Position numbers and translations under genes: made by a program | The notes under the pieces: model-generated | The model's database searches: none | The model's input: the letters and a program-made list of their open reading frames with translations, nothing else | What the model was told of the DNA's origin: nothing | From: Lytechinus pictus | Taxonomy: Eukaryota | Reading direction: 5' to 3' | Assembly: GCF_037042905.1 (NCBI RefSeq) | Contig: NC_087245.1 | Coordinates: 1,426,001-1,490,000 of the forward strand | DNA: 64,000 bases | Part shown: piece after piece, positions 803-39,757 of the stretch | How the letters are laid out: every line of letters starts with the position of its first letter | How positions within the stretch are numbered: position 1 is the first letter of the stretch

Positions 803-859
803 ATGGAGTTTGAAGTTCTACATAAGTTTTGTGACAAAATTGGATTGCGTTATTGTGAG
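803..859 (+). CDS. MBOAT2: MBOAT exon 1 (MEFEVLHKFCDKIGLRYCE)
   Basis: ATG at 803, donor GAG|GTGAGG, phase 0 joins exon 2; the junction falls just before the conserved NF..CQ motif. Confidence 0.8.
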
Positions 860-3800: not shown

Positions 3801-6800
3801 TTTTGGTTATAAGATTACTAAAAAAAAAATCCCACAACGTTTGTTTGTCAGTCCTCAGACCCTTGTCAAACTGATGACTTTTTATTATTATTCTTGTTTG
3901 ACATACCCCTTCCCCCTCCAGATAGAAATGTTCTGACCTGCACTCTAATATTGCGTTTGTCTCCTCTCTCTGAATTTCTGCTTTTTTCGCAAATATCTTA
4001 TTTTTTTAACCGGCGAAAAGCGTGGTAGAAAAGATTCATTTAGAAAAAAATCCGACCCACCCGTTTTTGTTCCCGTTACTGCAAACAAACATTTGGGTAG
4101 CTTACCCTGGTTAGCATCAAAACCAAAATATCTGATTTCTTACATAAAAAACAGGGGCCGCTGAGCGTTTTTGATAATGGAGGGGTTGAGCCGATAGTTG
4201 GAGGGAGTGGACTGGCCAAAAGAAAAATTACAAATTTATAGACTTCGGATTTTTTTGGACATGTTTGCTGAAGGGGTGAGGACTGAAACTTCCTACCAAA
4301 TCCGCCGCTTCTGTACTATTAGATTGAACGATTAAAACGATAGAGGCAAAAAATGAATTCTATAATAATAATATTAATAATATGCAACATTTATATAGAG
4401 CTTATTACAAATGTTTCTATTACTATTATGATTTGTTTTAATGATTTATTTATTACCATGATTACTTCATGTGTTTTGGGTTGTGAAATCAAGGAGACAA
4501 ATAAAAAATAGAACAAAACGAAAGAACGAATAAAAAACACTTTTAATTGCAGATGTTATAATTTATTCACAAAATAATTTCTCTTACTTTTAGTAGTTGC
4601 TAGCATGGCTCTTTTTGAGGGAAAGGTAAGATAAAGAAAGAAACGTAGAAAGTGACAAGGAGAGAGTCGGGAGGTATGATTTCAGACAATTTTAGTCACT
4701 CTTACTCGTGTAACTTTGAAATAATTTCAGGATATTACAAATCGAATACTGGTGCGCAAACTTCAGGAAGAAAATTATTTTACTATTACAATAGCTGCGT
4801 GGCAAATCGAATTAAATGAGACATATAATTTACGAAAATTTAAAAAAATGACTTTTAGTGAAAGATGGAGGCCTCTGTCTTGCCATATCCCTAAGCCCCA
4901 AGTTCACAACAAAAAAAATGATTAGTCGTGCATTTTCTTTTCGATAGATATCTACCCACATTATTGAAAATGGAAGATGATATAGAATTTATTGTGAAAT
5001 TACAGTTACAATAGTAGTTTTAAAAGGTTTTTCGGGACTTTTTTTGAGAATCTGGGAGAAAACCCCTCTAAATTTTCGACATGATGGCCACGATGCAATA
5101 GGATGAGAGGCTCACAAATGCAACAATCTCCGATCAATACAAGTTGGCAAAATCGAGGCATACTCTCGGAACGATTTCCGATGAAGAGAGAGAGTGAGAG
5201 AGAGGGGGGAGTATGTAAAATGACAGGTACTGAGAAGAAATAAATCAGAGAGAATGGATAGAGGGGGATGGGGCGGGTATATACCTCGTAATCCAAATCG
5301 GGGAGAAGGAAGACGATACATATATCATTTAAATGAGAAGAACTAAGAGAAAAAAAAGGTGTAGACGGGAGGGGATAAAGAAATACTTTAGATATAGGAA
5401 AGGGAATGAAAGCGGTAGATAATACATTCAGTTACAGGTTAGAAACCAGGGAAAGGGAAAACGAAAAAAAAAATCCCTTGGTACCGTTTTTAAATACATG
5501 TAGCCTACACTTTATATTGACAAATGCGCAATAACAAAAAAAAAAAATCCGCCAGTCACATAGAATGATTTAAGTAGCTTTCCAGTGCCCCTGGTTCACT
5601 TTGCTATTATTTTTGTCTTCTTTATATTTCAAAGGAAATAAACAGAGAATAAAGCAATTTAGAACACCGTTTACCCTCTACTCTTTCGAAAATGAAAACG
5701 TCCTTTTAGTTCTTGATCTCGGCACTCCTCAAACAAAAGAAAGTCATGGCGGACGCTCAAACAAATCCCTTATAAAAAGAGCAGGGAAACAAATAGCCAA
5801 CGCCCTGTATGAAATGAAGATTAGTGATTTCGTCAAGATGACCTACTGCTTTTCGTATTTAGCAGTACAAAAAGCTCTTAGGAATACTGCTTTTCATATT
5901 ACGACAGTAACATTTAAACAATGTTAATGTCTACTTGTTTATTGACAAAACATGCAGGCGCTTAAGAAATGGCAAGAACGTTTTCTTCTTGAGCATGACA
6001 GCACTTCATCAAAAAAGAAATACTTCGCCTTTTTGTTTACGTTTCCTGAAGGTGTAGGGGGGGGGTGACTGTCGCCTCCTACCGACTCCAACACCTCTGT
6101 ACTATTTAATTGAACGATTAAAAAGAAAGAGAGAAAACGGGATACAAATCTTTCATGATTTATTTATTAATTTTGTTTTCGATTGTGAAAAAACCCAGAA
6201 CGGCTAAAAAATGAACAAAACGGAGGAACATAATAAAGCACTTTTAATTTAGATGTTACAATTTCATGAGATGAAAATGATTTACTTTCTTTCATTGTGA
6301 CGAACAGTAGTCGGTAGCATGGTTATTTTGGATGGAAAAAGAAGATAAAGAAAAACTGAAACGCAGAACGAGACGAGGAGAGCGTTGGGAGGTATGATTT
6401 CAGATCCACTATATAATTTGAAACTTATTTACACCCTTCACTCTTTAAAATTGCAACGGAAAACATATCGAATACTGATATGTAATCTTCAGGAAAAAAA
6501 AAATGTTTTTTTTTAATACAAACCATAATTTATGAAAAGATACCAAAGACGATATTTAGTGAAACGTTGAGGACATCGTCTTGAAGCCCCCCAAAAATCA
6601 CTAAATAAGTTTCGGACTTCGTTGCGCGGTGTTAAATCATTATCATCGCACTTGCAAGGGAAAATTCGCGCTTTTTTATTCATTCTGGAAAATAAAGGTA
6701 TTTGGTATGCTGTGATTTCACCCAAAACGGATTATCGTTGTAATTATACACTTTGCAAATGATCTCTCTACAAGGAGGTAAACAGACAATTCATGAGTAG

Positions 6801-8403
6801 CGGGACAATAGGCAATGAAAAAAAGCACTAGAGCAGACAACAAAGCGGTATCGATCGAACCCGACCTGTCCGCGCGTGCTGATTGCCCTTACGCATTTTT
6901 GTACACAGTGCCTATTGACTTGGGGGAAAAGCGAAGATTTTACAATTCTGTTGATTTGAGAAGCGAAACCTGTATTTCTAGAAAGAAAAATGTCTGATCT
7001 TTCATCGTTACATTTACTAAAAATCCTGAAAATACATCAGTTTGGTGCAATTAGCAATTGATTGGGAAAACACCGCTACAGATCCAAAAACCAGCAATGT
7101 GCCAAAACGGCTCCGCCGCAGGGAGAGGTATCGGGATTCGCGGGTCCACACGCAAAGGGTTAACCAAGAAGAAAATATCAAACTCACTAACGTTAGGCCT
7201 AGTGGTAGTACACTAGACTAGTAGTAACTAGAGTAGAGTAAATGTGCTGCAGTTGAGACCCCCATTTTCACACCGGGGGGGGGGGGGGGGGGGGCCTATT
7301 TATCAATTAGATTCAGCAGAGCTGCCAATTGGTTGGATTTTTAGGAGGATTTTGAAGGTGGAATTGACACCAAATAGGATATTTCCCTTAGAAATAGGAT
7401 TATTGAAACTTGTAAGCAGGGTGCGACATAAGCGCTTGCCCGATTGCCCGGGGCAAGTAAAAGTTAGAGTCGGGCAAGTGTTTTGAAGTAAAGACAAAAA
7501 CTACTTGCCCGAATCGGGCAAGCAAAATTCTCACTGTGAAATGAAATTTTACAAAGTTTCCCCATACTTCACATGCAAAAATAAAGAGAGAGAAAAAAAA
7601 AGTTAACAACTTCCCTCAATTCAAATTGCAAGCCAGTTTGCGACATTTTTTGTGATCTACACACAAAAACACACACACAGAGTCAGCATACATACATGTG
7701 GCTGGTGCGCCCAGCCTCCAGCCTGTGTGGCAGGCATGCATGGATCTCCATGCTGCTGTGCACACCTGGGGAGCGTTTCATCAATATTTTCATCCGACAA
7801 GTTGTCAGATCTGACATCTTTCCTTGATTTTGATTGGCTGAGAGGCACTGTTCCTATGGTAAATGTCGGATAAAAGAGGACTTGTCGGATAAAACGTCCG
7901 ACAAGTCCTTTCATGAAACGCTCCCCCGTACTATCACCGATCAAACTCCGAATCAAAGTGAACAAGCTCACATGAAAAATAAATTTTCCAACAAAATAAT
8001 CACAAAATCGGCAGGAAATTTTTTATACTTATATGGATTCTCAGATTACTGATTTGGCGATGTGATCGGAGGAGCGAGTTATTGAGTTTTCATTACTAGT
8101 TTCAGCCGTTGTTTTGAGTGTTGTTGTGATCGGTCTAGTGGGAAGAAAGATGCGTGCAAGTCCACGATGCCGCGATGATTCATTTGATTTTTAAGTTTGT
8201 CAATGTTTCTCTGTGAAATTTTATTCATTTCTAAAACGTTTATTTTTCCAACAATTTTCAAAATATATTTTAAACAAATATCAGCAAGATTTTGTTAGAT
8301 GATTGCATTTTTTGTTTTGTTTCAAATTTGAGCTTTCTTCCTCTTTCTTTCTTTCTTTTTCTTCCTTCCGTAAGTAATCCTTACTTGCTACCTTCCTTCA
8401 TTC

Positions 8404-8436
<33 letters not shown>

Positions 8437-11400
8437 TTCCTTCCTTCCTTCCTTCCTTCCTTTCTTTCTTTCCTTCCTTCTTTCCTGTCTTTCTTTCTTT
8501 CTCTCTCTCTTCCTTTCTTTCTTTCTTTCTTTCTTTTCTATCCTTTCTTCATCCTTTATTTCCTTTCCTTTCTTTCTCTCTTTCCTTTCTTTCTTTCTTT
8601 TCTATCCTTCTTCACCCTCTCTTCTATCTTTCCCGCTTGCCTTTTTTGTTCCATCTATCTTTCTTTTCAATCTTTCCTAGCTTTCTTTCCTGATCTTTTT
8701 TCTCTCTCTCTCTCTGTTCATTTTTTTTCTTTCTTCTATTTTTTCTTTGCTTCATTCTCCCTTCCTGACCTTTTCTTTTTTTTCTTTCTTTCCTTCCATT
8801 ACTTTTTTTTTTAATTCTCTCTTCACTTCATTCTTTTCATCCTTTTTTCAATCTTTATTTTCTTCTTTCCTTCTCTTTTTCCTTATTCTTTCTCTCCTTT
8901 TTGCTATTTCCTTCCTGTTTCCCCCTTTCTTTCCGTCCGTCCTTCCTTCCTTCCTTCTTTCTTTCTTTCAAAAAATGAAGGAAATCTTTTTTCCTTCATT
9001 CTCTCTTTCATTCCTTTTTCTTTCCCCCTTTTTTATTTCTTTCCATTCTTTCTTTCACCCATTAATTCATTTCCCTTCCTTTCCTGTTCTTTTCTTTCCC
9101 TTTTTCTTAATTAATTCAAAGAATGAAGGAAACCTTTTTTTTCTGTCCTTTATTCTTTCTTTTTTCTCCATTCATCTCTTGTTTTTCATTTTTTTTCTCT
9201 CCTTCAATCTTTCCTTCACCCATTCTTTCACCTTCCCTTTATCTTTCTTTCTTTCTTCCTTCCTTGAAAAAAAAATTGCAAAGTACAATAGTTCACGTCT
9301 AAAGAGAGGAAAGGGGCAATGGTATATAAAACCATATTACTCTCTTTTGCAGCGGTGAAACATGATTTCTTTTGGGCAAGTGAAATGTATTTTCGGGCAA
9401 GTATTTTCCAACTATTTAGAAATTCACTTGCCCGACTGGGCAAGTGCTTCTAAAAAGTTATGTAGCACCCTGCATGTAAGAATGATTACTTTGGGTATGT
9501 TTTTCAAAATTTGAAAGAAAATTTTGATTTAGTGCTTGAAAATAGGATAAAAAGAAATGGAGAAGAGGATTTTTTCACAATTAAGGTGGCAGCTCTGGAT
9601 TCAGTGAAATAATTGATAAAAAGCTCATAAAAGCAGATAAATTGGAGAAAATATCAGTAAAGGTTTGATGAACATCTGTCAAATAGAAACTTGGACCTAC
9701 ACTACTACAACAGGACATTCAACGAATCCCCTCCAATGACGGTCGCTGCTAATCCTTTTATAAACAGAGGGAAACAGCCGACGCTCATCAAGCAGGCCGT
9801 AAAACACGCTGTCTCTGACAGGCAGCAGAAATCAATTGTGCGATTATCCCACACAATGCGATGTTGCTCGTTCACTTCCCAAAGCAATACGCACAGCAGC
9901 GAATGCTAGCGCTGTCAAAATGATTTGAGAAATCAGCCTTGCATTTACATATTTTTTAAGTACATCGCTTGCAACTGCTCACTGAATGCATTGCTATCAC
10001 TGAAGATCAGAATATTTACAACGAAATTGCAGCGAAATTTCGTCAGAAAATGTGAGGAAAGGCATTTAAAATCTCTAATTTTTGAAGAATCTTTACCTAG
10101 AAAGTCACACTTACCTTTGCTCGAAAGGTGATTTAGATATGGGCGTAAAATTCCACAGGATTGACAAAATTTATCTTGTTTTTTTGTGGTGATCATTCGA
10201 CAATCGCACGATATTAGTAGCATAATATCATGCACTGAAAACCGGAGCGCATTGCATTGTAGGTAACAATGAAGCAGGGGTTTTCCTGTGAACAGAACGC
10301 TCAGAGCTGGAGCAATGATCGTCTCTGGCCAAAAGAGGGCTGGTGAATTGTCAGTGACGATCAGCGGGTTTAAAAGAGCATTGTTTAAACACGCGCCATG
10401 GGCAAGGTTATAAAAACAGTGTAAAGAGAAAGTTAATTGTGTGACAGCAATTTTGATAGAGCTCTGAAAACAGGTGGTGGTCATAAAATTTGCTCGTTGA
10501 ATATCCCGTTATAGTAGGTACATGGTTATATTAAACTTGATTTTGTGATGTCACAGAACAGACGAGCTGCTGCAGCTCCTCCATAGTACCGGTACTCCAT
10601 CTGATATCCATTTATAAAAATGTAATTTTCTAGGAAAAAAAATTAAAGCAATTTCATTTCTGGCATTGAAATATCAGATACATCCATCTATGAGTATAAG
10701 AAAAAAAATATATTTGTCATATTCTATTAAAAATGGAATTTATGGAATTTTCATTACAATATATATGATATGTGGGGGAGCTGCCTAGCTGCTCACATGT
10801 GCCATCACAAATCAAATTTTTTTTTATTTCATAACTCTTTTTATTTGATGGATTTTCATAAAATCTTCATTTTTCTCTAATTTTTCTGCTTTTATGAAAA
10901 CAAACTTATTGACCAAGTAAACTTCCCCTTTAATAGAAACAGAACTTCAGAGGCACTTATATGCTTCACGTTTAAAAATGCAATGAACATTAAAACTTTA
11001 AAAAGATGTAGGCCTACATCATGTGTAACAATAAATTCAACTTACAATTTTCTTGAATTTCTTTTAAAAGGTGGTTCTGACATAGGGCCAGCCAGTGTCC
11101 TATCCAGATCGAACAGTGCAACGATCATTGAAAAACTTTAGGGGAAAGAAAATCAAACTTCCAGAGAATCCTCGAAACCTGGTTATGTATTTCAATGAAT
11201 CAAGGAAGCAAATGGTTTTCACAGAGCTTTTAGAGAGCTCTTTGATGTTTGATATGACGAATCGAGATGAGATGAATCAAGAATGTTTTGTAGCTTCCAT
11301 AGAAACCTTTGTCTGTATTTCATTCGGTTGTCTCGAATGCTGTCACAAGGGTGCAAGGTAGATGCATACAAATCTCCAAGGAGTAAGAGCTTACCTTGTC

Positions 11401-14400
11401 TCAATAAAAGACCCATAAATGTACTGAAAATAGAAATAGAAACATTTGGTCTTATTTGGGTGAGGCCCTCAAAGTTTTATATCAAGATCATGTTTGTAAT
11501 CACTCTGAAATCTCTTCCTTCAATTACTCTCATCAATGTTGGTTTATTTTGATTATCCATTCCAGGCCAATTTTGTGATGTGCCAGTGTCTGACGATGGT
11601 CTTCTCGTTTGTTTTCCGTGCCTATTGTGGACCATCTAAGGCTTCACCAACCACTCGCCATGCTGTATTTGCTGTGTTTGGTCTACTGTTGGCAGTGCAG
11701 GCTATAGGATGGTAAGAAATAATATTGACAGCTAGTCAACAGACTTGTAGCTTGCTGTTTTTGTCTCGCCTGCATAGCAGAGCGAGACTATAGGCACCGC
11801 TTTTCCGACGGCGACGGTGGCGGCATCGTCAACATTCAAATTAACCATGCTTAAGTTTTTGAAATGTCATCATAACTTAGATAGTATATAGACCTAGTTC
11901 ATGGAACTTAAGACATAAGGGTAATAAGTATTAATGAACATCCTGCCTGAATTTCAGGCCACATGACCAAGGTCAAAGGTCACTTTAATACGGTCAATGA
12001 AATTTAGCCATGTTGGCGGTATTTGTGGAATTGTCATCATAACTTTGAAATATCATGGATCTAGTTCATGAAACTTGGACATGAGAGCAATCAAGTATCC
12101 CTGAGGATCCTGTGCAAATTTCAGGGCACATGACGAAGGTCAAAAGTCATTCACGGTCAACGAACTTTGGTAATGTTTGGGGTATTTGTGGAATTGTCAT
12201 CATAAATTATAAAATGGATCTACATGTAGTTCATGAAACACAGATATAATGGTAATCAAGTATGAATGGTCGTTTTGCACGGGTCGTAGGTCACATGATC
12301 ATGGTCAAAGGCCATTTTGGGTCACTCAATAGACATGATACTATTTTATTATCATATGAATGTTTTCTTTTGTGAATAATTATTCAATAGCTGTTTTCAA
12401 AGTCAGCACTGCTGCTAAATCAAACCGTGTAGTGAAGGCGAGACTGCCAGAGGCGTTCCACTTGTTAGTTCATTGTAAAAATATTAGAAACCACATTCTT
12501 TTTATATTGTCATTCCCTCTCAATACCATTATGTAAAAGTCAATGATTTCAAGTAGAAATTATATAGCTGTCAGATCAAATGCATACAACCACCAGTCAA
12601 TGGCAGAAATAACATTTCTAGAATTTAGTAAGGGGGATAAGGGTACACTCTAGGAAGGCGATAGGGGCTTTCCTCCTAATGGTATTTTTGTAATGCTACA
12701 AACATCTGTATTATGTTTTTAAGAGAAGAGAAGTCAAATTCTCTTTAACAGAGTGAGATTGGTTTATTGATAGTTTGGACCAGAGGGAAGGACGGGGGTA
12801 GTTAGACTGGGAGAGGGGCCTTAATGTAACATCATTTTTTTTCTTTATTGTAAAATAATTGTGTTATAGAGTTACAATTCAAAGGTTGAAAGTATTTTAG
12901 AAAGAAAAGGTGATGATCATCTGACAGGTGGCACCCCTAATGGGAGAGAGTGCATTTTTTTTATAAAATGTAATTCCATGACTTTGTTGTATCTACCAGG
13001 GAGATCTTACACCTGTTACTGGTATCTACAGTTGGTTACCTGATAATGAACTTGATGAGTCCTCACATCATGCAGTACTATGCTTCTGGTTTTGCTATTC
13101 TTTACCTATCAGGAATTCACATATGGTTTATGATCATTGGTAGAGGTGTCAATAACTTTGATATTGTTGGGTAAGCTACATAACTTTAATACTTTCTTTT
13201 CTTTTCTTTAAAACAACTTTCCATTTAGGGTTGGTTCCCATTAGAGTTGAATAAAGCCAATACATATATTCTAAACTACGCCTGGGTTAAGAATGACGAA
13301 TGACATGCCTAACGCTTTCAGTATTTTAGTACAGGATAGAAGTTTTGAACGTGCATGCATATTCATGAATTTGTAATACTGGCATTTTCTTCAGAAGACC
13401 TTAACACTCATTTCATCCAAAAGATCTGATTGTATTGATTTATTTGTTTATGTCAATTTTCTTTGTCAAGGATAAAATATAACTTTAAGATTTTGGGATA
13501 TACTGTATCCTATAAATCTACATAAAACCAAGAATTAGGGATGTTTTATAATTTATAATCACATTCACACTATTTGGTGTTATGGTATTAAAGAGCATTA
13601 AATGAACTGCCACAAAATGTAATTTTTCTTTTTGGTAATTCAAATACTGTCGGCCAAATTGACTTTTTGCTACAATATGTCTCTGGAAGTAGTTATAACT
13701 CACTTATGAACACAATGCAGATACATTTGTAAATGAAATTTATTATTATGATTTAAGTTAGGATAATAAATTTTCCAGGACACACTGTAGAACCTTGAAT
13801 AGTAATCCCTTTCAGCAGCTTCAAAGCTATCCCGGGATGAACACATTATGTGTATCAGTGCGAGGTGCCATGAGTGAGGTATTAAGACTATTTGCACTTT
13901 AAAGATTGCACAAAGTACAATCAAATTCAACCAGAATATGCTGTTATGCTTTTGTTTCTTTACGTTGAGGGTTAAGTACAGTGATACCCAAATGAAGCAT
14001 GTAGTTCAGGAATTTATTATAGTCTTTGTGTCACTTCAAATCATTTACATTGATTCATTTAGAATTTATTATTATTTGAATTTCTTACCATATCAGACCT
14101 CTAATGGTTTTGACAGAGAAAGTAGGATGCCTTGCTTGGTCTGTACATGATGGTAAGAGTTCACTTTTTTATTACCATACATAGTAAATATACAAATACT
14201 ATGGCAAAATGGAAAGTTATAAACTTAGGCCATAGCTTACTTGAATCTAGAGGAGACAAATGATATTATATCATAATATATTCTATTTTTTCAGTGTAAA
14301 ATATTTGTTTGTATAAAGCTCTATCATATAGTTGGAACCGCTGATAAAGTTGTGATGAGCGATTCATACAAGTAATATACACTAGATCAAGAATGATCAT

Positions 14401-17400: not shown

Positions 17401-20400
17401 TTGCCATGATCTACTCATAATCATGAAATAACCAGTTTGAGATTGACAGTCTTAGTGATCTCATTTTTAAGCTATGATAACTTTCATATTCCTTGTCTGA
17501 TTTGATTGAATTTGTGACTGTGAATTTGTCTACTTTTCTAATTTCCACATTTTGTGCTCTTTTATCATTTTTTCCAGGTGGCAATCATGAAGAAATTGAT
17601 ATTCACAATATTTTGTGCATTGGTATTGTTATTTCTAGTACCCAAGTACCCAATAATGGCCAATGTTGGTGAGTCTTGTGTTATAATGCAGTATACAGTG
17701 TGAGAGACTTTATTATCAGCTTTACATACCAAAAGCTAGCAAACAATATCTCTCTTGCAAATTAGAAGTATGATAGTACAAATGTGAATAATAGTTTCTT
17801 TCATGTCAGAAATATAGATGACATTTGCTAGTCATTAACTACACATTCGCTTATAGCTTGTGAGGGATCAACTTTAAACTTGGCTGATCATTTGTGCATA
17901 TAATAGTAACAATGATCTGATAACTTTCAGAGTTGAAATAAAAGTTTAATATAAGGTAATGTATACATGAAAAAATGATCTTGTGAATAACCATTATATG
18001 GATTTCATTTTAAATATAAACTTGGGGGTCATGTATGCATATTACAGTGAAGATAACTTGATATGATCTCTATGACAATGGTTGTAGATTGAGTGGCTGA
18101 TGGACACAATTTCCAATCTATCCAATATATAAATTAGAATACATCTTGTGTTATTGATGTAATTAATAAAAAGTAACAATCTGATTTGATCAAGAAGGTT
18201 TTTTTTTTAATTAAAAATCTGGATATGATGTAGCCATATGTTGAGACTGAGCAGTCTTGTATCTATCTCATTTTTTCTTTTCTTTTTAAGATGAGGATCA
18301 CTTGGCAAATAGTTCATTCTGGTATAAGATGTTCTGTATGATGATATCAGTAGAATTTGCCAAATCCAAGTACTTCTTTGGATGGGTGTTGGGTAAGTTT
18401 TTCGTTTCAAATCAGCACAAAGTCTATAATAGGATAAATGTAAACCATTTTAAATGTATGGAATCAGCAGGATTTGAACCAGTGACCTGGCAGTCAGTCA
18501 CTCTTTAAGACATTTCTGGTTTGCACCTGACAATATGATTGCTTGCTTCATTTGAAATAAATCTTGGAATTTTAGACAGAAAGTCAGGAACTCTGAACAC
18601 CATAAACACCTTCCTCTTTTAGTAGTTTCTTTTAGTTATATGAATTCAATATTCAAACCAATCTATTTCTAAATGTAATGATGATTGTTGTCATTGATTT
18701 TTCTCAGCTGATGCTATTCATAATGCTGCCGGTATGGGGTTCAATGGTTATGATGACAAAGGAAATCCAAAATGGGATGCTGCCTCAAATGTTAATGTAT
18801 GGAACTTTGAAGTGAGTATTAGAGTATGATCTGAAACTTACATTATAATTTAATAATCTCAAAATGAGTTCAAAGAAATTGCAATATATTGATGTCATAG
18901 TTGCTTTTATATTGAAAAGAAAAGTAAGTGTGTGATTATTCTGGTTGAAAATATCTAATTGCTGATTAAGCAAATTAAGCATGGCATCTCAGTCAGGTGT
19001 ATAGTCCTTTCCAAGTAATAACACACTGTCCCACATTGGGCATGTCTGTGTTAGCATCTCAAGTGTGATCATTTTTCAGCTGAGATTTCATGATTTCACA
19101 AAATTTTGTGTATTTAAACGTACAAATATATGATGACAATTAACCTTGATTTTAAAGACTCATGAAATAATTATTGCTGTAACTCCATTAGTTTAGCTTT
19201 AAACCTAAAAAGACTGGACTATTCCAATGCCTAAGGAGACGGGGGGGGGGGGGGGGGGGTGCTGATTCAGCCCCCCTTATGATCTTGCGCGATTGCAATA
19301 AAATTGGCTCCCGCACTACCCATGGCATAATCTACAAAATAAAGTCAAACTCTTAATAATATATCATTTCTAATTAATTATGCAAATTTACGCATAAAAT
19401 CACAATTTTTCTCTAAAATGCTTATTATTATTCACAGAATCTTTATAGGATTCTGATCAAATGTTCTTTAAAAAAATTCAATATCACAATTATTTTCATA
19501 TGTATTTTTTAGTTTTGGAGATTTCTTATTTATTTCTTTCTTTTTCGACTTGCTGTTTTTCATGATTTTGATGGAATTCGTCGAGGACTTTATTCTGACC
19601 ATAAACAACTTGAAATTAATTGAGTTTAATCTGTAAAAGGACAAATGATAATACATTTATGAATTTGGGCTAAAAACACTATTTGCATTGGATTTGTACA
19701 CAAATTCATGTTTATGAGCAATTTGGGGTCTGCATGCACTTACGAAATATTGCATAATGTTGGAATTAGCCACCTAGGGGAGGCTAATTAGGTCTCAAAA
19801 TTTGCCCGAGACTTGAAAATGAAAAGTCAGTAAGTGGCCCGGTCAAAAAAATTTGCGCTGCGGGTTTGTGGCAAAAAATGCTGGGGGGGGGGGGCTTATT
19901 CAGCCCACCTGTCTTATTAGGGTTAATAATATTGCCCTCTTATTTGGAAGATGTAACAATTGACTTCTGTATCAACCACCCCTCCTGGCACTGTTGACCT
20001 AAAAAAGTAGAATGTAGAATTAGATGTGATAAAAGCAGATAAGTTAGAAAATTGCCAATGAAGGTTTAATGAAAATCCACCAAATAATAAATAGTTTAAT
20101 ATTAAAAACTTAATAGCTTGGTAAAATAAAATAACCTATAAGCAACCCCAGGTGAGTGTTTCCTAAAGCTGTTTTACGCACAACTGGTGATCCTTTCTTG
20201 TACTATGTGATATCCCTGTATAATTGATTTATGACCTAAGATAGTATGAACATGTTTCAATCTTTCATAAAGTCATGCATAACTTTATAACAAACAGCTT
20301 TATGAAACGCCCGCCTGGTGTGGATAAATATGTAAGTCTATTGATGAAATATTGCAATGATTATTTTAGCCAAACAATCCCATATTTTCTGATGATCATG

Positions 20401-23400
20401 ATCGATTTATTCACCTTTTCCATTTTCGCTGTAGTTTCCTACGAACCTGAAAGTGTTAGTGGATAGTTGGAACCGAAGCACCCTTGTTTGGTTACGATAC
20501 ACCTGCTACGATAGAGTGACTTTTCAACCTGCCCTTATGACCTTCTTACTCTCATCAATCTGGCATGGTTTCTTCCCTGGATTATTTGTAACATTTCTAT
20601 CAGGTCATCTCATGTTAATGGCATCTAAAAAGGTAACATTTCTATCAGGTCATCTCATGTTAATGGCATCTAAAAAGGTAACATTTCTATCAGGTCATCT
20701 CATGTTAATGGCATCTAAAAAGGTAACATTTCTATCAGGTCATCTCATGTTAATGGCATCTAAAAAGGTAACATTTCTATCAGGTCATCTCATGTTAATG
20801 GCTTCTAAAAAGGTAACATTTCTATCAGGTCATCTCATGTTAATGGCATCTAAAAAGGTAACATTTCTATCAGGTCATCTCATGTTAATGGCATCTAAAA
20901 AGGGAACATTTCTATCAGGTCATCTCATGTTAATGGCATCTAAAAGGGTAACATTTCTATCAGGTCATCTCATGTTAATGGCTTCTAAAAAGGTAATATT
21001 TCTATCAGGTCATCTCATGTTAATGGCTTCTAAAAAGGTAACATTTCTATCAGGTCATCTCATGTTAATGGCATCTAAAAAGGTAACATTTCTATCAGGT
21101 CATATCATGTTAATGGCATCTAAAAAGGTAACATTTCTATCAGGTCATCTCATGTTAATGGCATCTAAAAAGGTAACATTTCTATCAGGTCATCTCATGT
21201 TAATGGCTTCTTAAAGGGAACATTTCTATCAGGTCATCTCATGTTAATGGCTTCTAAAAAGGTAATATTTCTATCAGATCATCTCATGTTAATGGCTTCT
21301 AAAAAGGTAACATTTCTATCAGGTCATCTCATGTTAATGGCTTCTAAAAAGGTAATATTTCTATCAGGTCATCTCATGTTAATGGCATCTAAAAAGGTAA
21401 CATTTCTATCAGGTCATCTCATGTTAATGGCTTCTAAAAAGGTAACATTTCTATCAGGTCATCTCATGTTAATGGCTTCTAAAAAGGTAACATTTCTATC
21501 AGGTCATCTCATGTTAATGGCATCTAAAAAGGTAACATTTCTATCAGGTCATCTCATGTTAATGGCTTCTAAAAAGGTAACATTTCTATCAGGTCATCTC
21601 ATGTTAATGGCATCTAAAAAGGTAATATTTCTATCAGGTCATCTCATGTTAATGGCTTCTAAAAAGGTAATATTTCTATCAGGTCATCTCATGTTAATGG
21701 CATCTAAAAAGGTAACATTTCTATCAGGTCATCTCATGTTAATGGCTTCTAAAAAGGTAACATTTCTATCAGGTCATCTCATGTTAATGGCTTCTAAAAA
21801 GGTAAAATTTCTATCAGGTCATCTCATGTTAATGGCATCTAAAAAGGTAACATTTCTATCAGGTCATCTCATGTTAATGGCTTCTAAAAAGGTAACATTT
21901 CTATCAGGTCATCTCATGTTATTGGCTTCTAAAAAGGTAACATTTCTATCAGGTCATCTCATGTTAATGGCATCTAAAAAGGTAACATTTCTATCAGGTC
22001 ATCTCATGTTAATGGCATCTAAAAAGGTAACATTTCTATCAGGTCATCTCATGTTAATGGCTTCTAAAAGGGAACATTTCTATCAGGTCATCTCATGTTA
22101 ATGGCTTCTAAAAAGGTAACATTTCTGTCAGGTCATCTCATGTTAATGGCTTCTAAAAAGGTAACATTTCTATCAGGTCATCTCATGTTAATGGCATCTA
22201 AAAAGGGAACATTTCTATCAGGTCATCTCATGTTAATGGCTTCTAAAAAGGTAACATTTCTATCAGGTCATCTCATGTTAATGGCTTCTAAAAAGGTAAC
22301 ATTTCTATCAGGTCATCTCATGTTAATGGCATCTAAAAAGGTAACATTTCTATCAGGTCATCTCATGTTAATGGCATCTAAAAAGGTAACATTTCTATCA
22401 GGTCATCTCATGTTAATGGCATCTAAAAAGGTAACATTTCTATCAGGTCATCTCATGTTAATGGCTTCTTAAAGGGAACATTTCTATCAGGTCATCTCAT
22501 GTTAATGGCATCTAAAAAGGTAACATTTCTATCAGGTCATCTCATGTTAATGGCTTCTAAAAAGGTAACATTTCTATCAGGTCATCTCATGTTAATGGCA
22601 TCTAAAAAGGTAACATTTCTATCAGGTCATCTCATGTTAATGGCTTCTAAAAAGGTAACATTTCTATCAGGTCATCTCATGTTAATGGCATCTAAAAAGG
22701 TAATATTTCTATCAGGTCATCTCATGTTAATGGCTTCTAAAAAGGTAACATTTCTATCAGGTCATCTCATGTTAATGGCATCTAAAAAGGTAACATTTCT
22801 ATTAGGTCATCTCATGTTAATGGCTTCTTAAAGGGAACATTTCTATCAGGTCATCTCATGTTAATGGCTTCTAAAAAGGTAACATTTCTATCAGGTCATC
22901 TCATGTTAATGGCTTCTAAAAAGGTAAAATTTCTATCAGGTCATCTCATGTTAATGGCATCTAAAAAGGTAACATTTCTATCAGGTCATCTCATGTTAAT
23001 GGCTTCTAAAAAGGTAACATTTCTATCAGGTCATCTCATGTTATTGGCTTCTAAAAAGGTAACATTTCTATCAGGTCATCTCATGTTAATGGCTTCTAAA
23101 AAGGTAACATTTCTATCAGGTCATCTCATGTTAATGGCTTCTAAAAAGGTAATATTTCTATCAGGTCATCTCATGTTAATGGCATCTAAAAAGGTAACAT
23201 TTCTATCAGGTCATCTCATGTTAATGGCTTCTAAAAAGGTAACATTTCTATCAGGTCATCTCATGTTAATGGCTTCTAAAAAGGTAACATTTCTATCAGG
23301 TCATCTCATGTTAATGGCATCTAAAAAGGTAACATTTCTATCAGGTCATCTCATGTTAATGGCTTCTAAAAAGGTAACATTTCTATCAGGTCATCTCATG

Positions 23401-26400
23401 TTAATGGCATCTAAAAAGGTAATATTTCTATCAGGTCATCTCATGTTAATGGCTTCTAAAAAGGTAATATTTCTATCAGGTCATCTCATGTTAATGGCAT
23501 CTAAAAAGGTAACATTTCTATCAGGTCATCTCATGTTAATGGCTTCTAAAAAGGTAACATTTCTATCAGGTCATCTCATGTTAATGGCTTCTAAAAAGGT
23601 AAAATTTCTATCAGGTCATCTCATGTTAATGGCATCTAAAAAGGTAACATTTCTATCAGGTCATCTCATGTTAATGGCTTCTAAAAAGGTAACATTTCTA
23701 TCAGGTCATCTCATGTTATTGGCTTCTAAAAAGGTAACATTTCTATCAGGTCATCTCATGTTAATGGCATCTAAAAAGGTAACATTTCTATCAGGTCATC
23801 TCATGTTAATGGCATCTAAAAAGGTAACATTTCTATCAGGTCATCTCATGTTAATGGCTTCTAAAAGGGAACATTTCTATCAGGTCATCTCATGTTAATG
23901 GCTTCTAAAAAGGTAACATTTCTATCAGGTCATCTCATGTTAATGGCTTCTAAAAAGGTAACATTTCTGTCAGGTCATCTCATGTTAATGGCTTCTAAAA
24001 AGGTAACATTTCTATCAGGTCATCTCATGTTAATGGCATCTAAAAAGGGAACATTTCTATCAGGTCATCTCATGTTAATGGCTTCTAAAAAGGTAACATT
24101 TCTATCAGGTCATCTCATGTTAATGGCTTCTAAAAAGGTAACATTTCTATCAGGTCATCTCATGTTAATGGCATCTAAAAAGGGAACATTTCTATCAGGT
24201 CATCTCATGTTAATGGCTTCTAAAAAGGTAACATTTCTATCAGGTCATCTCATGTTAATGGCATCTAAAAAGGTAACATTTCTATCAGGTCATCTCATGT
24301 TAATGGCTTCTTAAAGGGAACATTTCTATCAGGTCATCTCATGTTAATGGCATCTAAAAAGGTAACATTTCTATCAGGTCATCTCATGTTAATGGCTTCT
24401 TAAAGGGAACATTTCTATCAGGTCATCTCATGTTAATGGCATCTAAAAAGGTAACATTTCTATCAGGTCATCTCATGTTAATGGCATCTAAAAAGGTAAC
24501 ATTTCTATCAGGTCATCTCATGTTAATGGCTTCTAAAAAGGTAACATTTCTATCAGGTCATCTCATGTTAATGGCTTCTAAAAAGGGAACATTTCTATCA
24601 GGTCATCTCATGTTAATGGCATCTAAAAAGGTAACATTTCTATCAGGTCATCTCATGTTAATGGCATCTAAAAAGGTAACATTTATATCAGGTCATCTCA
24701 TGTTAATGGCTTCTAAAAAGGTAACATTTCTATCAGGTCATCTCATGTTAATGGCTTCTAAAAAGGTAACATTTATATCAGGTCATCTCATGTTAATGGC
24801 TTCTAAAAACGTAACATTTCTATCAGGTCATCTCATGTTAATGGCATCTAAAAAGGTAACATTTCTATCAGGTCATCTCATGTTAATGGCATCTAAAAAG
24901 GTAACATTTCTATCAGGTCATCTCATGTTAATGGCATCTAAAAAGGTAACATTTCTATCAGGTCATCTCATGTTCATGGCATCTAAAAAGGTAACATTTC
25001 TATCAGGTCATCTCATGTTAATGGCTTCTTAAAGGGAACATTTCTATCAGGTCATCTCATGTTAATGGCATCTAAAAAGGTAACATTTCTATCAGGTCAT
25101 CTCATGTTAATGGCATCTAAAAAGGTAACATTTCTATCAGGTCATCTCATGTTCATGGCATCTAAAAAGGTAACATTTCTATCAGGTCATCTCATGTTAA
25201 TGGCTTCTACAAATGTAATTTTTCTTTCACTCTGATATAACCTGCTTTTATGCCTAATATCCATTTATTTAATATTTTGCTGAAATTATCATCCACATCC
25301 CTATGAAGTGAATGTTGTCTCTTAAAAAACAAAATATATCAATTATATTATATGGCTTTTCTCAAGTATATTGTATTTAATGTGTTTTTTTTCTTTTTGT
25401 CACTATTTCAGGTCCGGGCAAATGTCAGGCCTCTTTTCCAGGGGTCATACCAGAGTAGTGCATTTTATGATGTCTTAACTTGGGCAACAACTTATGTTAC
25501 TTTAGCCTACATCATCACACCTTTCACCTACCTAAGGCTTGATCTATCTATCAAATTCTTTAAGTAAGTATTTATGATTTTATGGTAATATGTTCAGAAC
25601 AGAAAACATTTTTTTTCTTATGATAATAGGTAAGAATATCAAAGAGTACCAAAAAGTATCTTAATAATTCTTGAAAGATAGACTTTTTATGCATTAAGAA
25701 ATCTAGAGTATAAAAATATGTGCTTACACAAATAAAATGGGTTTTTTCAATTGATAGAGAAAACCTAACAAGGGCAAAAATTAAAAGTACAAGAAGAAAT
25801 TTATAGTATTTAGGGTTTGCATAAACCCCCAGTTATATGTACAATATGGGTGGTATATGTATGCACAACTGAGGGATGAATGACTTCATACAGTATATTA
25901 GTTTGATTCCATCTTGAACATGTGAAGTTTCTATCATAATTTGATTATGGTTCAATTAAAATCTTTTTATCAAATCTATGAACATTTACAATATAAAAAA
26001 TAAATGATAACAAAAAACAGTGAGTGTGTGACATCAGCCCATTTGCATAACATATTTGTTGTGCATTTTACTGTTTATTGAAATTAAGTGCAAATTAAAA
26101 ATGTAATATCTATTGTTGATAAAATGATCAGGGTTATGAATGATTGGTTTTTATCTTTTCTCTCAATTCAACTTACTATTTGGTTGAATATGACCTATTC
26201 TATGTTCCCTGATTTTCTGTTTTGGGTTTTTTTGTTGTTGATATATTTGACATTCTTGTCTCATTGGCTTATTCAAATCTTCAAATTTTTATATGCCTAT
26301 ATAGTGAGAGAAAGTTGGCTCTCTGTAAGCATGTAACTGATTTGCCTGAAAGGTATCTATTTGTTTTCTTTGTTCAGTTCCATTTACTGGTGGCTTCACA

Positions 26401-26558
26401 TCGTAGCTATAATCACCCTTCTAGTCCTACCTGCTCATAAAAGGTTAACCACCAAGATGAATGACAACAACAAAGTTAATGGTGCCAAGGATTCATGCTC
26501 CTCCACACTTACGGGTCAAAGTGGGGGCGGAGTGGAAGAGGTCAAAAAGGATTTGTAG
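803..26558 (+). CDS. MBOAT2: Membrane-bound O-acyltransferase (MBOAT1/2-like lysophospholipid acyltransferase), complete 12-exon gene, 496 aa
   Basis: Exons 803-859, 11566-11711, 13000-13170, 14097-14152, 14569-14623, 15362-15539, 17578-17668, 18291-18392, 18708-18811, 20435-20632, 25412-25563, 26378-26558. All introns are GT-AG and phases join into a 1491-nt ORF. Motifs match MBOAT1/2: NFVMCQ, GPLMVLTEK, LCGP, KYFFGWVLADAIHNAAGMGF, DSWN, SIWHGFFPG, FYDVLTW. MBOAT1 versus MBOAT2 orthology cannot be resolved. Confidence 0.95.
1651..2605. mobile_element. Non-autonomous TIR DNA transposon containing a SINE
   Basis: Ends TAGGGTGTCTGAAG ... CTCCAGACACCCTA (13/14 inverted match). Confidence 0.6.
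1990..2249 (-). mobile_element. tRNA-derived SINE
   Basis: Minus strand has A box TGGCCCAGTGG, B box GGTTCGAATCC and core GCTGCACTCAACCCAGGTGAGGTAAATGGGTACC; related copies near 33600-33780 and 51400-51520. Confidence 0.85.
2623..7159. mobile_element. Non-autonomous piggyBac-type element, copy 1 (MBOAT intron 1)
   Basis: TTAA at 2619-2622 and 7160-7163; TIR CCCTTTGCGTG...CACGCAAAGGG; homologous to 57274-62377; no transposase ORF. Confidence 0.92.
7768..7926. mobile_element. Short MITE nested in the hAT element
   Basis: TIR GGGGAGCGTTTCAT...ATGAAACGCTCCCC; degenerate copy near 35736-35860. Confidence 0.8.
8330..9265 (+). repeat. Polypyrimidine (CTTT/CCTT)n low-complexity tract
   Basis: Near-continuous C/T run of about 0.9 kb. 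Confidence 0.9.
11566..11711 (+). CDS. MBOAT2: MBOAT exon 2 (ANFVMCQ...AVQAIGW)
   Basis: tccag| acceptor, |gtaag donor, homologous to VNFVVCQ...RH...FGW. Confidence 0.93.
11758..12466 (+). mobile_element. Helentron-associated (HINE/DINE-like) non-autonomous element
   Basis: Starts in a T run, subterminal IR GTCTCGCCT...AGGCGAGAC, ends CTTGTT; about 3 internal ~140-bp repeats with AAGGTCAAAGGTCA; fragment near 15746-15870. Confidence 0.75.
13000..13170 (+). CDS. MBOAT2: MBOAT exon 3 (EILHLLLVS...NFDIVG)
   Basis: ccag|, |gtaag, phase 2 to 2, transmembrane segments. Confidence 0.93.
14097..14152 (+). CDS. MBOAT2: MBOAT exon 4 (PLMVLTEKVGCLAWSVHDG)
   Basis: tcag|, |gtaag; matches GPMMIITQK..LA..IHDG. 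Confidence 0.95.
14569..14623 (+). CDS. MBOAT2: MBOAT exon 5 (ISRKDSDMNAMQKKMVVR)
   Basis: acag|, |gtaat; phase 1 to 2. Confidence 0.92.
14990..15310 (+). repeat. Purine-rich (GA) low-complexity tract
   Basis: G/A-only runs; similar tracts near 5180-5460 and 31500-31740. Confidence 0.8.
15362..15539 (+). CDS. MBOAT2: MBOAT exon 6 (SIPSILEYVSF...LCGP...EPSAA)
   Basis: atag|, |gtaag; PS.LEY and GP motifs. Confidence 0.95.
15950..16335 (-). mobile_element. Degenerate 3' fragment of an RTE-clade LINE
   Basis: Translation RIPNDMMYGEL...LRFNDTCKCDMK...IDTITWE..A...LW plus downstream CKNC...CH.R..L..H matches the RTE/BovB ORF C-terminus. Confidence 0.8.
17578..17668 (+). CDS. MBOAT2: MBOAT exon 7 (VAIMKKL...MANV)
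   Basis: ttccag|, |gtgag; phase 0 to 1. Confidence 0.92.
18291..18392 (+). CDS. MBOAT2: MBOAT exon 8 (EDHLANSS...KYFFGWVL)
   Basis: ttaag|, |gtaag; KY.F.W motif. Confidence 0.95.
18708..18811 (+). CDS. MBOAT2: MBOAT exon 9 (ADAIHNAAGMGFNGYD...WD...NFE)
   Basis: ctcag|, |gtgag; highly conserved MBOAT segment. Confidence 0.96.
19203..19922. mobile_element. Small piggyBac-like non-autonomous element
   Basis: TTAA|ACCTAAAAAGAC ... GTCTTATTAGGG|TTAA; subterminal GGGGCTGATTCAGCCC motifs. Confidence 0.65.
20435..20632 (+). CDS. MBOAT2: MBOAT exon 10, catalytic (DSWN...IWHGFFPG...VTFLSGHLMLMASKK); 3' boundary ambiguous because of the repeat array
   Basis: gtag| acceptor; the first donor AAG|GTAACA at 20633 gives family-typical length; 11 further intact in-frame donors follow. 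Confidence 0.93.
20588..25214 (+). repeat. Exon-derived 45-bp minisatellite, 103 units (GTAACATTTCTATCAGGTCATCTCATGTTAATGGCWTCTAAAAAG)
   Basis: Direct reading. Span 4627 bp = 103 x 45 - 8, consistent with eight 44-bp variant units. Unit 1 is the last 15 codons of MBOAT exon 10. Confidence 0.98.
25412..25563 (+). CDS. MBOAT2: MBOAT exon 11 (VRANVRPLF...FYDVLTW...KFF)
   Basis: ttcag|, |gtaag; phase 0 to 2. Confidence 0.95.
26378..26558 (+). CDS. MBOAT2: MBOAT exon 12, terminal (SIYWWLHI...EEVKKDL*)
   Basis: ttcag|, TAG stop; last TM helix and KKxx ER-retrieval signal. Confidence 0.94.
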
Positions 26559-36875: not shown

Positions 36876-39757
36876 TAGTCCAGGATAGGCCCCATAGACA
36901 AGGGGTCGAACCTTGTTTTTTTAGATATACAATGTTTTTTGATGGTTTCTTGTCAATTCGAGGGTGCTGATTCCGAATCTGAATGATGCCACTCTTGTAA
37001 CCTTGAGCATTTTCCGCAAATTGGCAAAATCCAATATGGCCGCCAAAATATGCAAATTACCCATGAAAATCATAAAATTGCCAACACATTAGCTATAAAA
37101 TGCATGTAGTTGTTGTGCAGAAGTGAAATACCAATTGGAAAAGCGATATTTGACAAAATATTTATTTTATTGATATTCAAAATGGCCGCCATAACCCCTG
37201 TATACTTTATTACTTTAGCTCGAGCTAAAGCCGGGGTAATAATAGCAGCGCTTTGTATCCTCTGGCAAAAAGCGCTTTATAAATCCAACTATTATTATTA
37301 TTATTATTATGTAGAATATGAATGGGGAAAATATTTTTTCAAACAAGAACACTATTATTGCATGTGATTGTGACCTGCGAGTGGACTACTGTCTGAAAAC
37401 ATGACTATTAACAAAACTATGTCATTTGTATACTATCTAATGTGATCAATGCTGTATTATGATATTCAAAATGGCTGTCATTATAGACCCCTTATACTGT
37501 GTACAATATATAAAAGGGGACAAATAATTTTCACAACCTTTGAATTTGTTTGACTTTAAAATGCCAATAACTGCGAAATATTGGTGTAACACTGTCTGAC
37601 AACAAGGATTTCTAACGAAACATATCATTTCCCTTGCAATTTCGGTAATTATGCTGCATGTTGACATTCAAAATGGCTGCCATAGGCCCTATCTGTATTA
37701 TGAACAAAGCGAATAAAGAAACTAATTTTTACAAGAGTAAAAACAATAAAATGAATGTAATTGTAATCTATACGAGTGAAATATTGTCTAAACACATGAT
37801 TTCTGGCGAAACATATCATTTAATTTTTCATGCATGAGATAAATGCTGTATTGTAAAATTCAAAATGGCCCCTATGGGCCCTTACAGTATTATCTACAAT
37901 GTAAATGGGGACAAATACTTTTGAAAGAATTAGGATTTGCCTGACTATGAAATCCATATAATTCTTTTGTATAAGGAAAATATTGTTTGAAAACGTGATT
38001 TTTTAAATGAAATATAACATTTCCTCTCCCATAGGTGATAAATACTGTATTTTGACTTTCAAAACGGCCGCACAAGCCCCTACAAATTCTGTAACATGCG
38101 TATAGGGAAACTAATCATCACCAGAATGAGAACCAAAAACGCACGTAACTATGTGATGTATGGGTAAAATTTGGTCTTGAACATGATTTCTGACTAAATA
38201 CATCACATAATGGTTGAGAAGGTAATAAAGGCCTTACTTTGAAATTCAAAATTGCTGCCATAGCCCAAAGTAGTATGTACATTGTAACTGGGGACAGATA
38301 ATTTTGACAAATTTTTTACTATGAAAATGGCTTAATTTTGATGTAAGTGTTAAGTATTGTCTAAACCCAATGATTTCTAACGAAATATATCATAGCTTGT
38401 GTCATAAAGGTGATGAATGCAGCCTTTTAAAAATGAAAAATGGCCGCCATAGTCCCTTATCTTAATATGTAAAATTTGAATGGGGAAAGATAATTTCCAC
38501 AAAGAAACATATTGCAGCCATTTTGAAATTTAAATATAGCATTTATCACCTAAATAACATAAGAAATGATCTATTTGGTTACAAAATCATATTTTCAGAC
38601 GATATTTCACTCATACATGCAACACCATTTAGTCAAGCAAAGCCAAATTCTGTTAAAATTATATGTTCCCATTCACAAAGTACATAATAGGCCTACTGTT
38701 ATGGCCTGTAGCGGTCATTTTGACTTTCAAAATACATTATTTATCACCTACCTGGCAGAATGAATGATATATCTTGTTAGGAATTATGTTTTCAGACAAT
38801 ATTTTACTCTTAAATCACAATTATATGCATGTTATGGTGCTGACTCATGTGAAAATTGGTTTCCCAGATCGATTGTACATAATACAGTCAATGTCTTTTG
38901 GCGGCCATTTTGAAAGTCAAAATACAATATTTAACACAAATATGAAACCCGAATAATATATTTCGTTGCAAATTATATTTGAAGACAGTATTCCACTAAT
39001 TTACCACAAAAAATACGTTTTAGTGCTCACCTTGTGATTGTTTTTGTCCTCTCTTACATCGTAGATCATAATTTTAGGGCCTTTGGCGGTCATATTAAAT
39101 ATCAAAATACAGGGTTTATCACATACATGGCATGTTAAATAATAAATTTCGTTAACAAAAATGTTTTTAGTCAGTATTCCACTCGTTTATCTCAACAAAA
39201 TGCATTTTAGTGCTCACTCTTGTGATTTTTTTGTGTCACCATTCACATTGTACATAATAGTGTTAGGGCTTTTGAAGGCCATTTTGAATATCAAAATACA
39301 GGATTTATCACATAACTGACATAACAAATGATATATATCGTTAGCAATCATGTTTACAGACATTGCTTCACTCATAGATCATAATTACTTGCATTTCAGT
39401 GCTCAATTTTGTAAAAAATAATTTTCCCCATTCATATTGTACAGGGGTCTATGATGGCGGCCATTTTGATATCAAGAAAATAAATATTTTGACAAAAATC
39501 ATTTTTTCTGATATTATTTCACTCTGGCAGCACAATTGCATGTACTTTAAAGCCAATGTGTGGACAATTTTATGATTTTCATGGGTAATTTGAATATTTT
39601 GGCGGCCATATTGGATTTTGCAAATTTGCAGAAAATGCTCAAGGTTACACGAGTGGCATCATTCAGATTCGGAATCAGCACCCTCGAATTGACAAGAAAC
39701 CATAAAAAACATTGTATATATAAAAAAACAAGGTTCGACCCCTTCTATCCTGGACTA
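36876..39757. mobile_element. Foldback-type element: long terminal inverted arms plus mirror-image arrays of ~190-bp subrepeats
   Basis: TAGTCCAGGATAG...CTATCCTGGACTA ends; about 300 bp of clearly alignable inverted arms; AAAATGGCCGCC motif forward in the left half and reverse in the right half. Confidence 0.85.

Follow-up and report, generated by a model that had tools for sequence, protein, structure and literature searches.

Minisatellites that repeat an exon/intron junction have been described in the human F7, IFI6, CBS, LMNB2 and PDGFA genes (Borensztajn et al., 2006; PMC1557585). Here we analyze an array that repeats such a junction in a 64,000-nucleotide stretch of Lytechinus pictus DNA (hereafter the window; RefSeq assembly GCF_037042905.1, contig NC_087245.1, positions 1,426,001 to 1,490,000 of the forward strand). 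In the window, to whose first letter all coordinates below refer, the last 45 bp of exon 10 of a gene for an MBOAT enzyme are followed by 102 further units that lie in intron 10.

In intervening sequence (IVS) 7 of human F7, a 37-bp unit is present in 5–9 copies, and the most upstream donor alone is used. With F7 minigenes the pseudo-sites became active once the upstream sites were mutated and never competed with them, and the authors proposed an oriented 5′–3′ scanning (PMC1557585). Use of the authentic donor alone is likewise given for LMNB2 (100 bp, 10–15 copies) and for intron 4 of PDGFA (81 bp, 16–18 copies). Intron 2 of IFI6 (6-16) carries 25 pseudo-sites, and the authentic donor and the next two are used (PMC1557585, citing Turri et al., 1995); in IVS13 of CBS, with a 31-bp variable number tandem repeat (VNTR) of 15–20 copies, two pseudo-sites are used (PMC1557585). 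In amphioxus, the 'mirages' of Adh3 and of the globin genes BflGb6 and BflGb9 are tandem duplications across an exon–intron boundary that reportedly leave splicing undisturbed; they have 3–6 units of ∼150 bp, and the boundary units escape homogenization (PMC3087553).

We consider it likely that the L. pictus array belongs with the intronic minisatellites of the 'mirage' or F7-IVS7 type and is silent and tolerated, with an upstream-first choice of donor. The spliceosome would pick the most upstream donor (20632/20633; here and below the slash marks the cut) and close exon 10 there, the mature mRNA would retain one unit and encode the conserved MBOAT enzyme, and the remaining 88 donors would be silent pseudo-sites in a 4.8-kb intron. 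The array would have no required function and would simply be tolerated.

Repeated donors at the end of exon 10

The host gene was placed on the + strand at 803–26558, with 12 exons, by tblastn and a GT-AG-constrained spliced model. The spliced product (496 aa) showed no mismatch to the L. pictus RefSeq isoform P0006, 3 mismatches to P0001 and 26 to the Lytechinus variegatus protein P0007. The translation of exon 10 was 100% identical to an L. pictus lysophospholipid acyltransferase 2-like protein and 79–83% identical to the orthologues of Strongylocentrotus purpuratus and Diadema setosum. P0006 matched the Pfam family MBOAT (PF03062) with 100 bits, where the cut-off is 27, and exon 10 alone reached 39.3 bits (E 6.1e-10). 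Against the LPCAT3 structure 7f3x, P0006 gave an E of 3.5e-27 with the WHG motif aligned; in this alignment the repeat unit is the hydrophobic stretch immediately after the His of that motif. From what is established for the family, we take this His to be the catalytic residue.

A single tandem array was detected with Tandem Repeats Finder at 20588–25229 (period 45, 103.3 copies, 96% matches). Its score of 8542 was the highest among 22 tandem-repeat rows in the window, the runner-up scoring 564. A parse anchored on the unit's conserved core yielded 103 units arranged head to tail. Of these, 94 measure 45 bp and 8 measure 44 bp, inside the range of 10 to more than 100 bp; the last is a terminal unit with a diverged partial copy of 15 nt behind it. 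Nineteen exact sequence variants were present among the units, and the two most frequent ones (32 and 27 units) differ solely in the third position of one Ala codon. At the end of the last full unit, ACAAAT/GTAATT replaces the usual AAAAAG/GTAACA. The terminal unit and the partial copy were the most diverged parts of the array, and the interior was homogenized up to a block of 809 bp duplicated at 100% identity. The unit is confined to the locus: every one of its 48 matches in the 811.7-Mb assembly fell inside the array, a result that rules out a dispersed satellite. The features of this region are as follows.

20435..20632, + strand: exon 10, 198 nt, starting and ending in phase 0, with the invariant WHG motif (His codon 20564–20566); from tblastn, the spliced model, PF03062 and an RNA joint.
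20588..20632, + strand: unit 1, coding, the final 15 codons of exon 10; from the unit parse and the spliced model.
20630..20638, + strand: authentic donor AAG/GTAACA, first in the series of repeated donors, with the cut after 20632; from the 496-aa product and the drop in RNA depth.
20633..21214, + strand: stretch open in the frame of the exon, 12 further units with 12 in-frame pseudo-donors, closed by TAA.
20633..25214, + strand: intronic part of the minisatellite, units 2–103; GT at 89 of 102 junctions, GG at 13, 8 units of 44 bp.
25170..25229, + strand: terminal diverged unit (ending in ACAAAT) and 15-nt partial copy, GTAATTTTTCTTTCA.
25230..25411, + strand: non-repetitive 3′ end of intron 10, acceptor tatttcag/GTC.
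25412..25563, + strand: exon 11, with a phase-0 start; from tblastn and the spliced model.
26378..26558, + strand: exon 12 with the stop codon; from the spliced model.

Because unit 1 is the end of the exon, most junctions between units recreate a copy of the donor AAG/GTAACA; the first monomer holds both the exon end and the authentic splice-site sequence that is repeated in the intron. Over all units, the junction 9-mers were AAG/GTAACA (75), AAG/GGAACA (13), AAG/GTAATA (9), AAG/GTAAAA (3), AGG/GTAACA (1), AAC/GTAACA (1) and TTT/GTAACA (1). The last is the start of unit 1, within the exon, and not an intronic junction. GT is therefore found at the start of 90 of the 103 units and at 89 of the 102 junctions, GG standing in its place at the other 13.

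Twelve donors lie in frame, at 20633, 20678, 20723, 20768, 20813, 20858, 20948, 20993, 21038, 21083, 21128 and 21173 (position 20903 in this series is without a donor), and the first in-frame stop after exon 10 is the TAA at 21212–21214. Along the array, the reading frame changes at each of the eight 44-bp units. If 8 of the 102 intronic units disrupt the frame, a series of 12 undisturbed units has a chance of ∼0.38 by an arithmetic estimate, so that the open run of 13 units is not notable. Together, the 8 frameshifting units, the in-frame TAA after 13 units and the 13 lost GTs point to a repeat that would be under no coding constraint past the exon. A coding exon that bears the repeat was ruled out, since 8 units shift the frame, stops occur and the orthologues have a single unit. 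An open frame of 270 aa runs out of exon 10; these 270 codons are probably not coding, which is a warning for annotation.

Much of this had been anticipated by the original prediction, which was made from the letters of the window. The parse agrees with its claim that the end of an exon had been amplified 103 times, and the family match and the WHG alignment bear out its assignment of the host to the MBOAT genes. It had also placed the unit at the last 15 codons of the exon, 8 residues past the active-site His, and had proposed that most junctions recreate AAG/GTAACA (75 of 102 do so exactly, and 89 of 102 with GT); both were recovered here, and the 12 in-frame donors and the first stop were reproduced to the base. 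Its phase-0 intron, with in-frame splicing to exon 11 possible, is in keeping with the phase-0 start of that exon at 25412. The statement that the unit length is a multiple of three stands for 94 units and fails for the eight of 44 bp.

A second motif recurs with the unit. TTTCTRTCAG/GT, a tract resembling a 3′ splice site with GT directly behind it, is present in 99 units (20603–25200), 16 nt past each pseudo-donor. It is reminiscent of a recursive-splice motif, but CATC, which comes after its GT, is a poor fit to a donor.

Donor choice in gene models and RNA reads

All five RefSeq models that span the junction (four from L. pictus and one from L. variegatus) contain exactly one unit and then pass to exon 11. 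This count leaves out one more L. pictus model, P0004, the sequence of which frameshifts have garbled. The orthologous proteins of S. purpuratus and Diadema have one unit each, and a product equal to P0006 was obtained with the first donor (20632/20633) only.

The N-terminus of P0004 matched the window at 49434–49501 (88% over 17 aa), on a 22-bp tandem repeat of 2.7 copies. This older model seems to be a fusion in which unrelated sequence 23 kb downstream is joined to exons 8–12 of the gene.

Raw RNA depleted of ribosomal RNA (rRNA) from three runs (X18–X20, 8.3–8.7 million reads each), assigned by species label, was mapped to 18250–20700, that is, exons 8–10 and 2.5 units. Donor choice was read from binned depth; the listing of loose ends was dominated by transposon-like reads of intron 9, and reads clipped at 20632 or 20677 were not countable. 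In X19, the joint of exons 9 and 10 (18811 to 20435) was covered by 6 reads, and the depth was 2.34, 4.34 and 2.2 in the exon-10 bins and 0.1 in the bin 20628–20700. Run X20 gave 0.76, 1.07 and 1.78 in the exon-10 bins and 0.08 in the bin 20628–20700. In X18 there were no reads on the exons, none across the joint of exons 9 and 10 and none in the bin 20628–20700. The 'first mate on -' side carried the depth, which is what the usual stranded libraries should give for + strand RNA. The residual 6–7 read-bases in the bin 20628–20700 correspond to 5 exon bases plus the shared GT, ∼one read per run, and so no read runs on into unit 2.

No read from the interior of the array was present among the ∼25 million raw reads of X18–X20, though the 102 intronic units would stack on the 2.5 units of the mapped region. 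Stable transcripts that retain the whole array at anywhere near the mRNA level are ruled out. Transcripts using at least two of the repeated donors were seen neither among the models nor among the ∼10 reads on exon 10.

The intron 9 reads are a separate matter. Three stretches of this intron (19070–19151, 19644–19889 and 20136–20381) showed very high RNA depth, up to ∼120 per strand in the raw runs and a word depth of ∼15,000 in a further run, X1. Many of these reads are 90–95% alike and continue into unlike sequence, and joints of the 'opposite strands' class connect ∼20173–20183 to ∼20290–20293. These stretches are probably copies of dispersed, transcribed transposon-like or foldback elements; the last of them ends ∼54 nt upstream of the exon-10 acceptor.

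In X1, a Logan contig of 908 nt joins exons 8, 9 and 10 (depth 18, 0 differences) and ends at 20617, which is 30 nt into unit 1. The words are 31 letters long, and a break at this point therefore suggests that unit-to-unit junction words are present in X1. The word depth of X1 was 20.1 in 20628–20700 vs. 18 for the exon contig, and it was 0 in the unique stretches of the intron.

Several points weigh against an upstream-first donor in a silent array: (i) gene models can miss minor isoforms; (ii) only ∼10 RNA reads, from two runs, fall on exon 10, with ∼one read per run reaching the exon end, and by a rough Poisson estimate a transcript could on average carry as many as ∼1.6 extra units; (iii) X1, which appears to be an RNA run, may hold array RNA derived from pre-mRNA, DNA carry-over or multi-unit isoforms, although an intron signal of 1–2% over ∼100 collapsed units would suffice for its array depth; (iv) the authentic donor has C at +5, which the copies repeat, when G is found at +5 in 9 of the 11 donors of the gene, so this donor is predicted to be weak and to have no intrinsic advantage over the copies, from which it would be distinguished by position only, as the first after the exon-10 acceptor; and (v) in IFI6 and CBS the next two pseudo-sites are used (PMC1557585).

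The last two points are also the case for a low-level use of proximal pseudo-donors, like that in human IFI6 (where the two used after the authentic donor are the first of 25) and CBS, which would add 15-residue steps to the helix after the His. Each of the first 12 intronic donors equals the authentic site, or nearly so, and lies in frame, the junction words appear to be present in X1, and the raw-read sample is too small to speak against a sizeable minority of extra-unit transcripts. Extra-unit isoforms are found in 0 of 5 public models, and no raw read of X18–X20 passes from unit 1 into unit 2. On the LPCAT3 7f3x alignment the inserts would lengthen a membrane helix beside the active site, and the products would probably be non-functional. 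We regard low-level use of this kind as unlikely.

An expression dial or U1 sink, in which splicing at distal donors leads to nonsense-mediated decay (NMD), or U1 is held by the copies, and array length sets the output of the enzyme, appears very unlikely. There are 89 donor copies between the exon and the sole acceptor, and the depth of the gene was low in the three rRNA-depleted runs. The 31-bp VNTR of CBS, a human precedent by association, is reportedly linked with reduced CBS activity, to go by the title of a 2001 paper by Lievers. Exon-level retention of the array would give of the order of 100 interior reads, when compared with the 0 observed, though NMD could hide them, and the downstream sites of the F7 minigenes did not compete with the upstream ones (PMC1557585). 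A broader combination is distinctly improbable: donors that are partly active in a length-polymorphic array, which diverts a length-dependent share of the transcripts (12 in-frame steps, the rest to NMD) and tunes the output of this phospholipid-remodeling enzyme, as one of a recurrent and mechanistically favored set of junction-centered minisatellites in the genome.

Isoforms with 1–13 units, an array-length dial and a U1 decoy had all been put forward in the original prediction. These proposals gained no positive evidence, as judged from the five single-unit models, the match to P0006 and the drop in depth at 20632.

Origin, copy number and genomic setting

The partial copy at 25215–25229 shares 12 of its 15 bases with the opening 15 nt of the unit. 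Among random pairs of 15-mers drawn from the window, 169 of 2,000,000 had at least 12 matches. To judge from this agreement, the partial copy is likely to be the original start of the intron; alternatively, it may be merely a decayed unit. If it is the original start, exon 10 positions -45 to -31 and the 15 nt that open intron 10 would have formed an imperfect 15-nt direct repeat, which probably seeded the 45-bp tandem duplication via slippage or unequal exchange. Whole units followed by a 15-nt partial copy are the footprint expected of a duplication seeded in this way.

Unequal crossing-over could then have raised the array to ∼100 units, an expansion that would include a recent internal duplication of 809 bp. 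The structure of this duplication is seen directly in a DNA alignment (809 of 809 columns identical, offset 1797 bp), and the order of the unit variants is the same in the two blocks.

21307..22115, + strand: 18 units inside the array that make up the first copy of the 809-bp duplication.
23104..23912, + strand: second copy of the 809-bp block, offset 1797 bp.

The same identity could reflect a false duplication in the assembly, in which case the true array would have ∼63 units, and the copy number has been read from the assembly alone. Duplicated internal blocks are an ordinary outcome of unequal exchange in minisatellites, and the flanks of the two blocks differ by one unit. Current long reads are long enough to cover an array of 4.6 kb, and the contig break in X1 would back the tandem arrangement from outside the assembly. 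We take the block identity as a mark of unequal exchange, false duplication being less likely, and a copy number that is partly an assembly artifact is highly improbable; it would be compatible with the other explanations, and 63 units would leave a silent, tolerated array unchanged as our reading.

The gene is present as a single copy in the assembly, other matches being distant paralogues of 26–40% identity, and no second copy or haplotig showing the ancestral intron was found there. Intron 1, within 803–11565, is ∼10.7 kb, far exceeding the other introns, and carries a CTTT microsatellite of ∼51 copies at 8404–8612. The RefSeq isoforms named X1 and X2 begin at downstream Met codons, which suggests alternative first exons or promoters. 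Two further tandem repeats lie in the window, one of 167 bp × 2.3 copies (77% matches) at 11861–12239 in intron 2 and one of 189 bp × 3.8 copies (69% matches) at 38697–39412.

Comparison with described junction minisatellites

The closest counterpart is IVS7 of F7. In both, the first monomer spans the exon–intron junction and identical donors are repeated in the intron. Use of the most upstream donor alone, as in F7, is likely in L. pictus as far as its models and sparse reads go. In contrast to the 5–9 copies of F7, the L. pictus array has 103 units, and its unit is wholly exonic, with 45 exon bases vs. 4 in F7. The L. pictus unit is also a multiple of three, which places the first 12 pseudo-donors in frame, and the host is an invertebrate. 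A mutational test exists for F7, whereas donor choice in L. pictus rests on models and reads.

IFI6 likewise has many repeated donors after the end of an exon and is the precedent for the idea of an isoform ladder. The L. pictus array is four times larger, and the use of extra donors seen in IFI6 was not seen in the L. pictus data. The minisatellites of CBS, LMNB2 and PDGFA repeat an exon/intron junction as the L. pictus array does, but differ from it in copy number, in the origin of the unit and in the host.

With the amphioxus mirages the L. pictus array shares an invertebrate deuterostome host, a tandem duplication that spans the boundary, a homogenized interior and diverged boundary units. 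It differs in having 103 units of 45 bp, on the donor side, when compared with 3–6 units of ∼150 bp in the mirages (PMC3087553). No junction-spanning minisatellite of an echinoderm was found described in the literature among the matches listed.

The notable features are therefore (i) 103 units, vs. at most 25 pseudo-sites in the other examples named (PMC1557585); (ii) a unit composed entirely of coding sequence; and (iii) a unit length that is a multiple of three. The 89 near-identical donors, of which 12 are in frame, make the L. pictus array the largest natural case of 'too many donors' among the examples named, and a conserved membrane enzyme appears to tolerate it next to its catalytic exon. 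If the first donor is used exclusively, the locus would be a stringent natural test, beyond mammals, of an upstream-first choice, whether by 'oriented scanning' or by exon definition. The type of repeat is already known, and the L. pictus array is a new case of it, unusually large and in frame, rather than a new kind of element.

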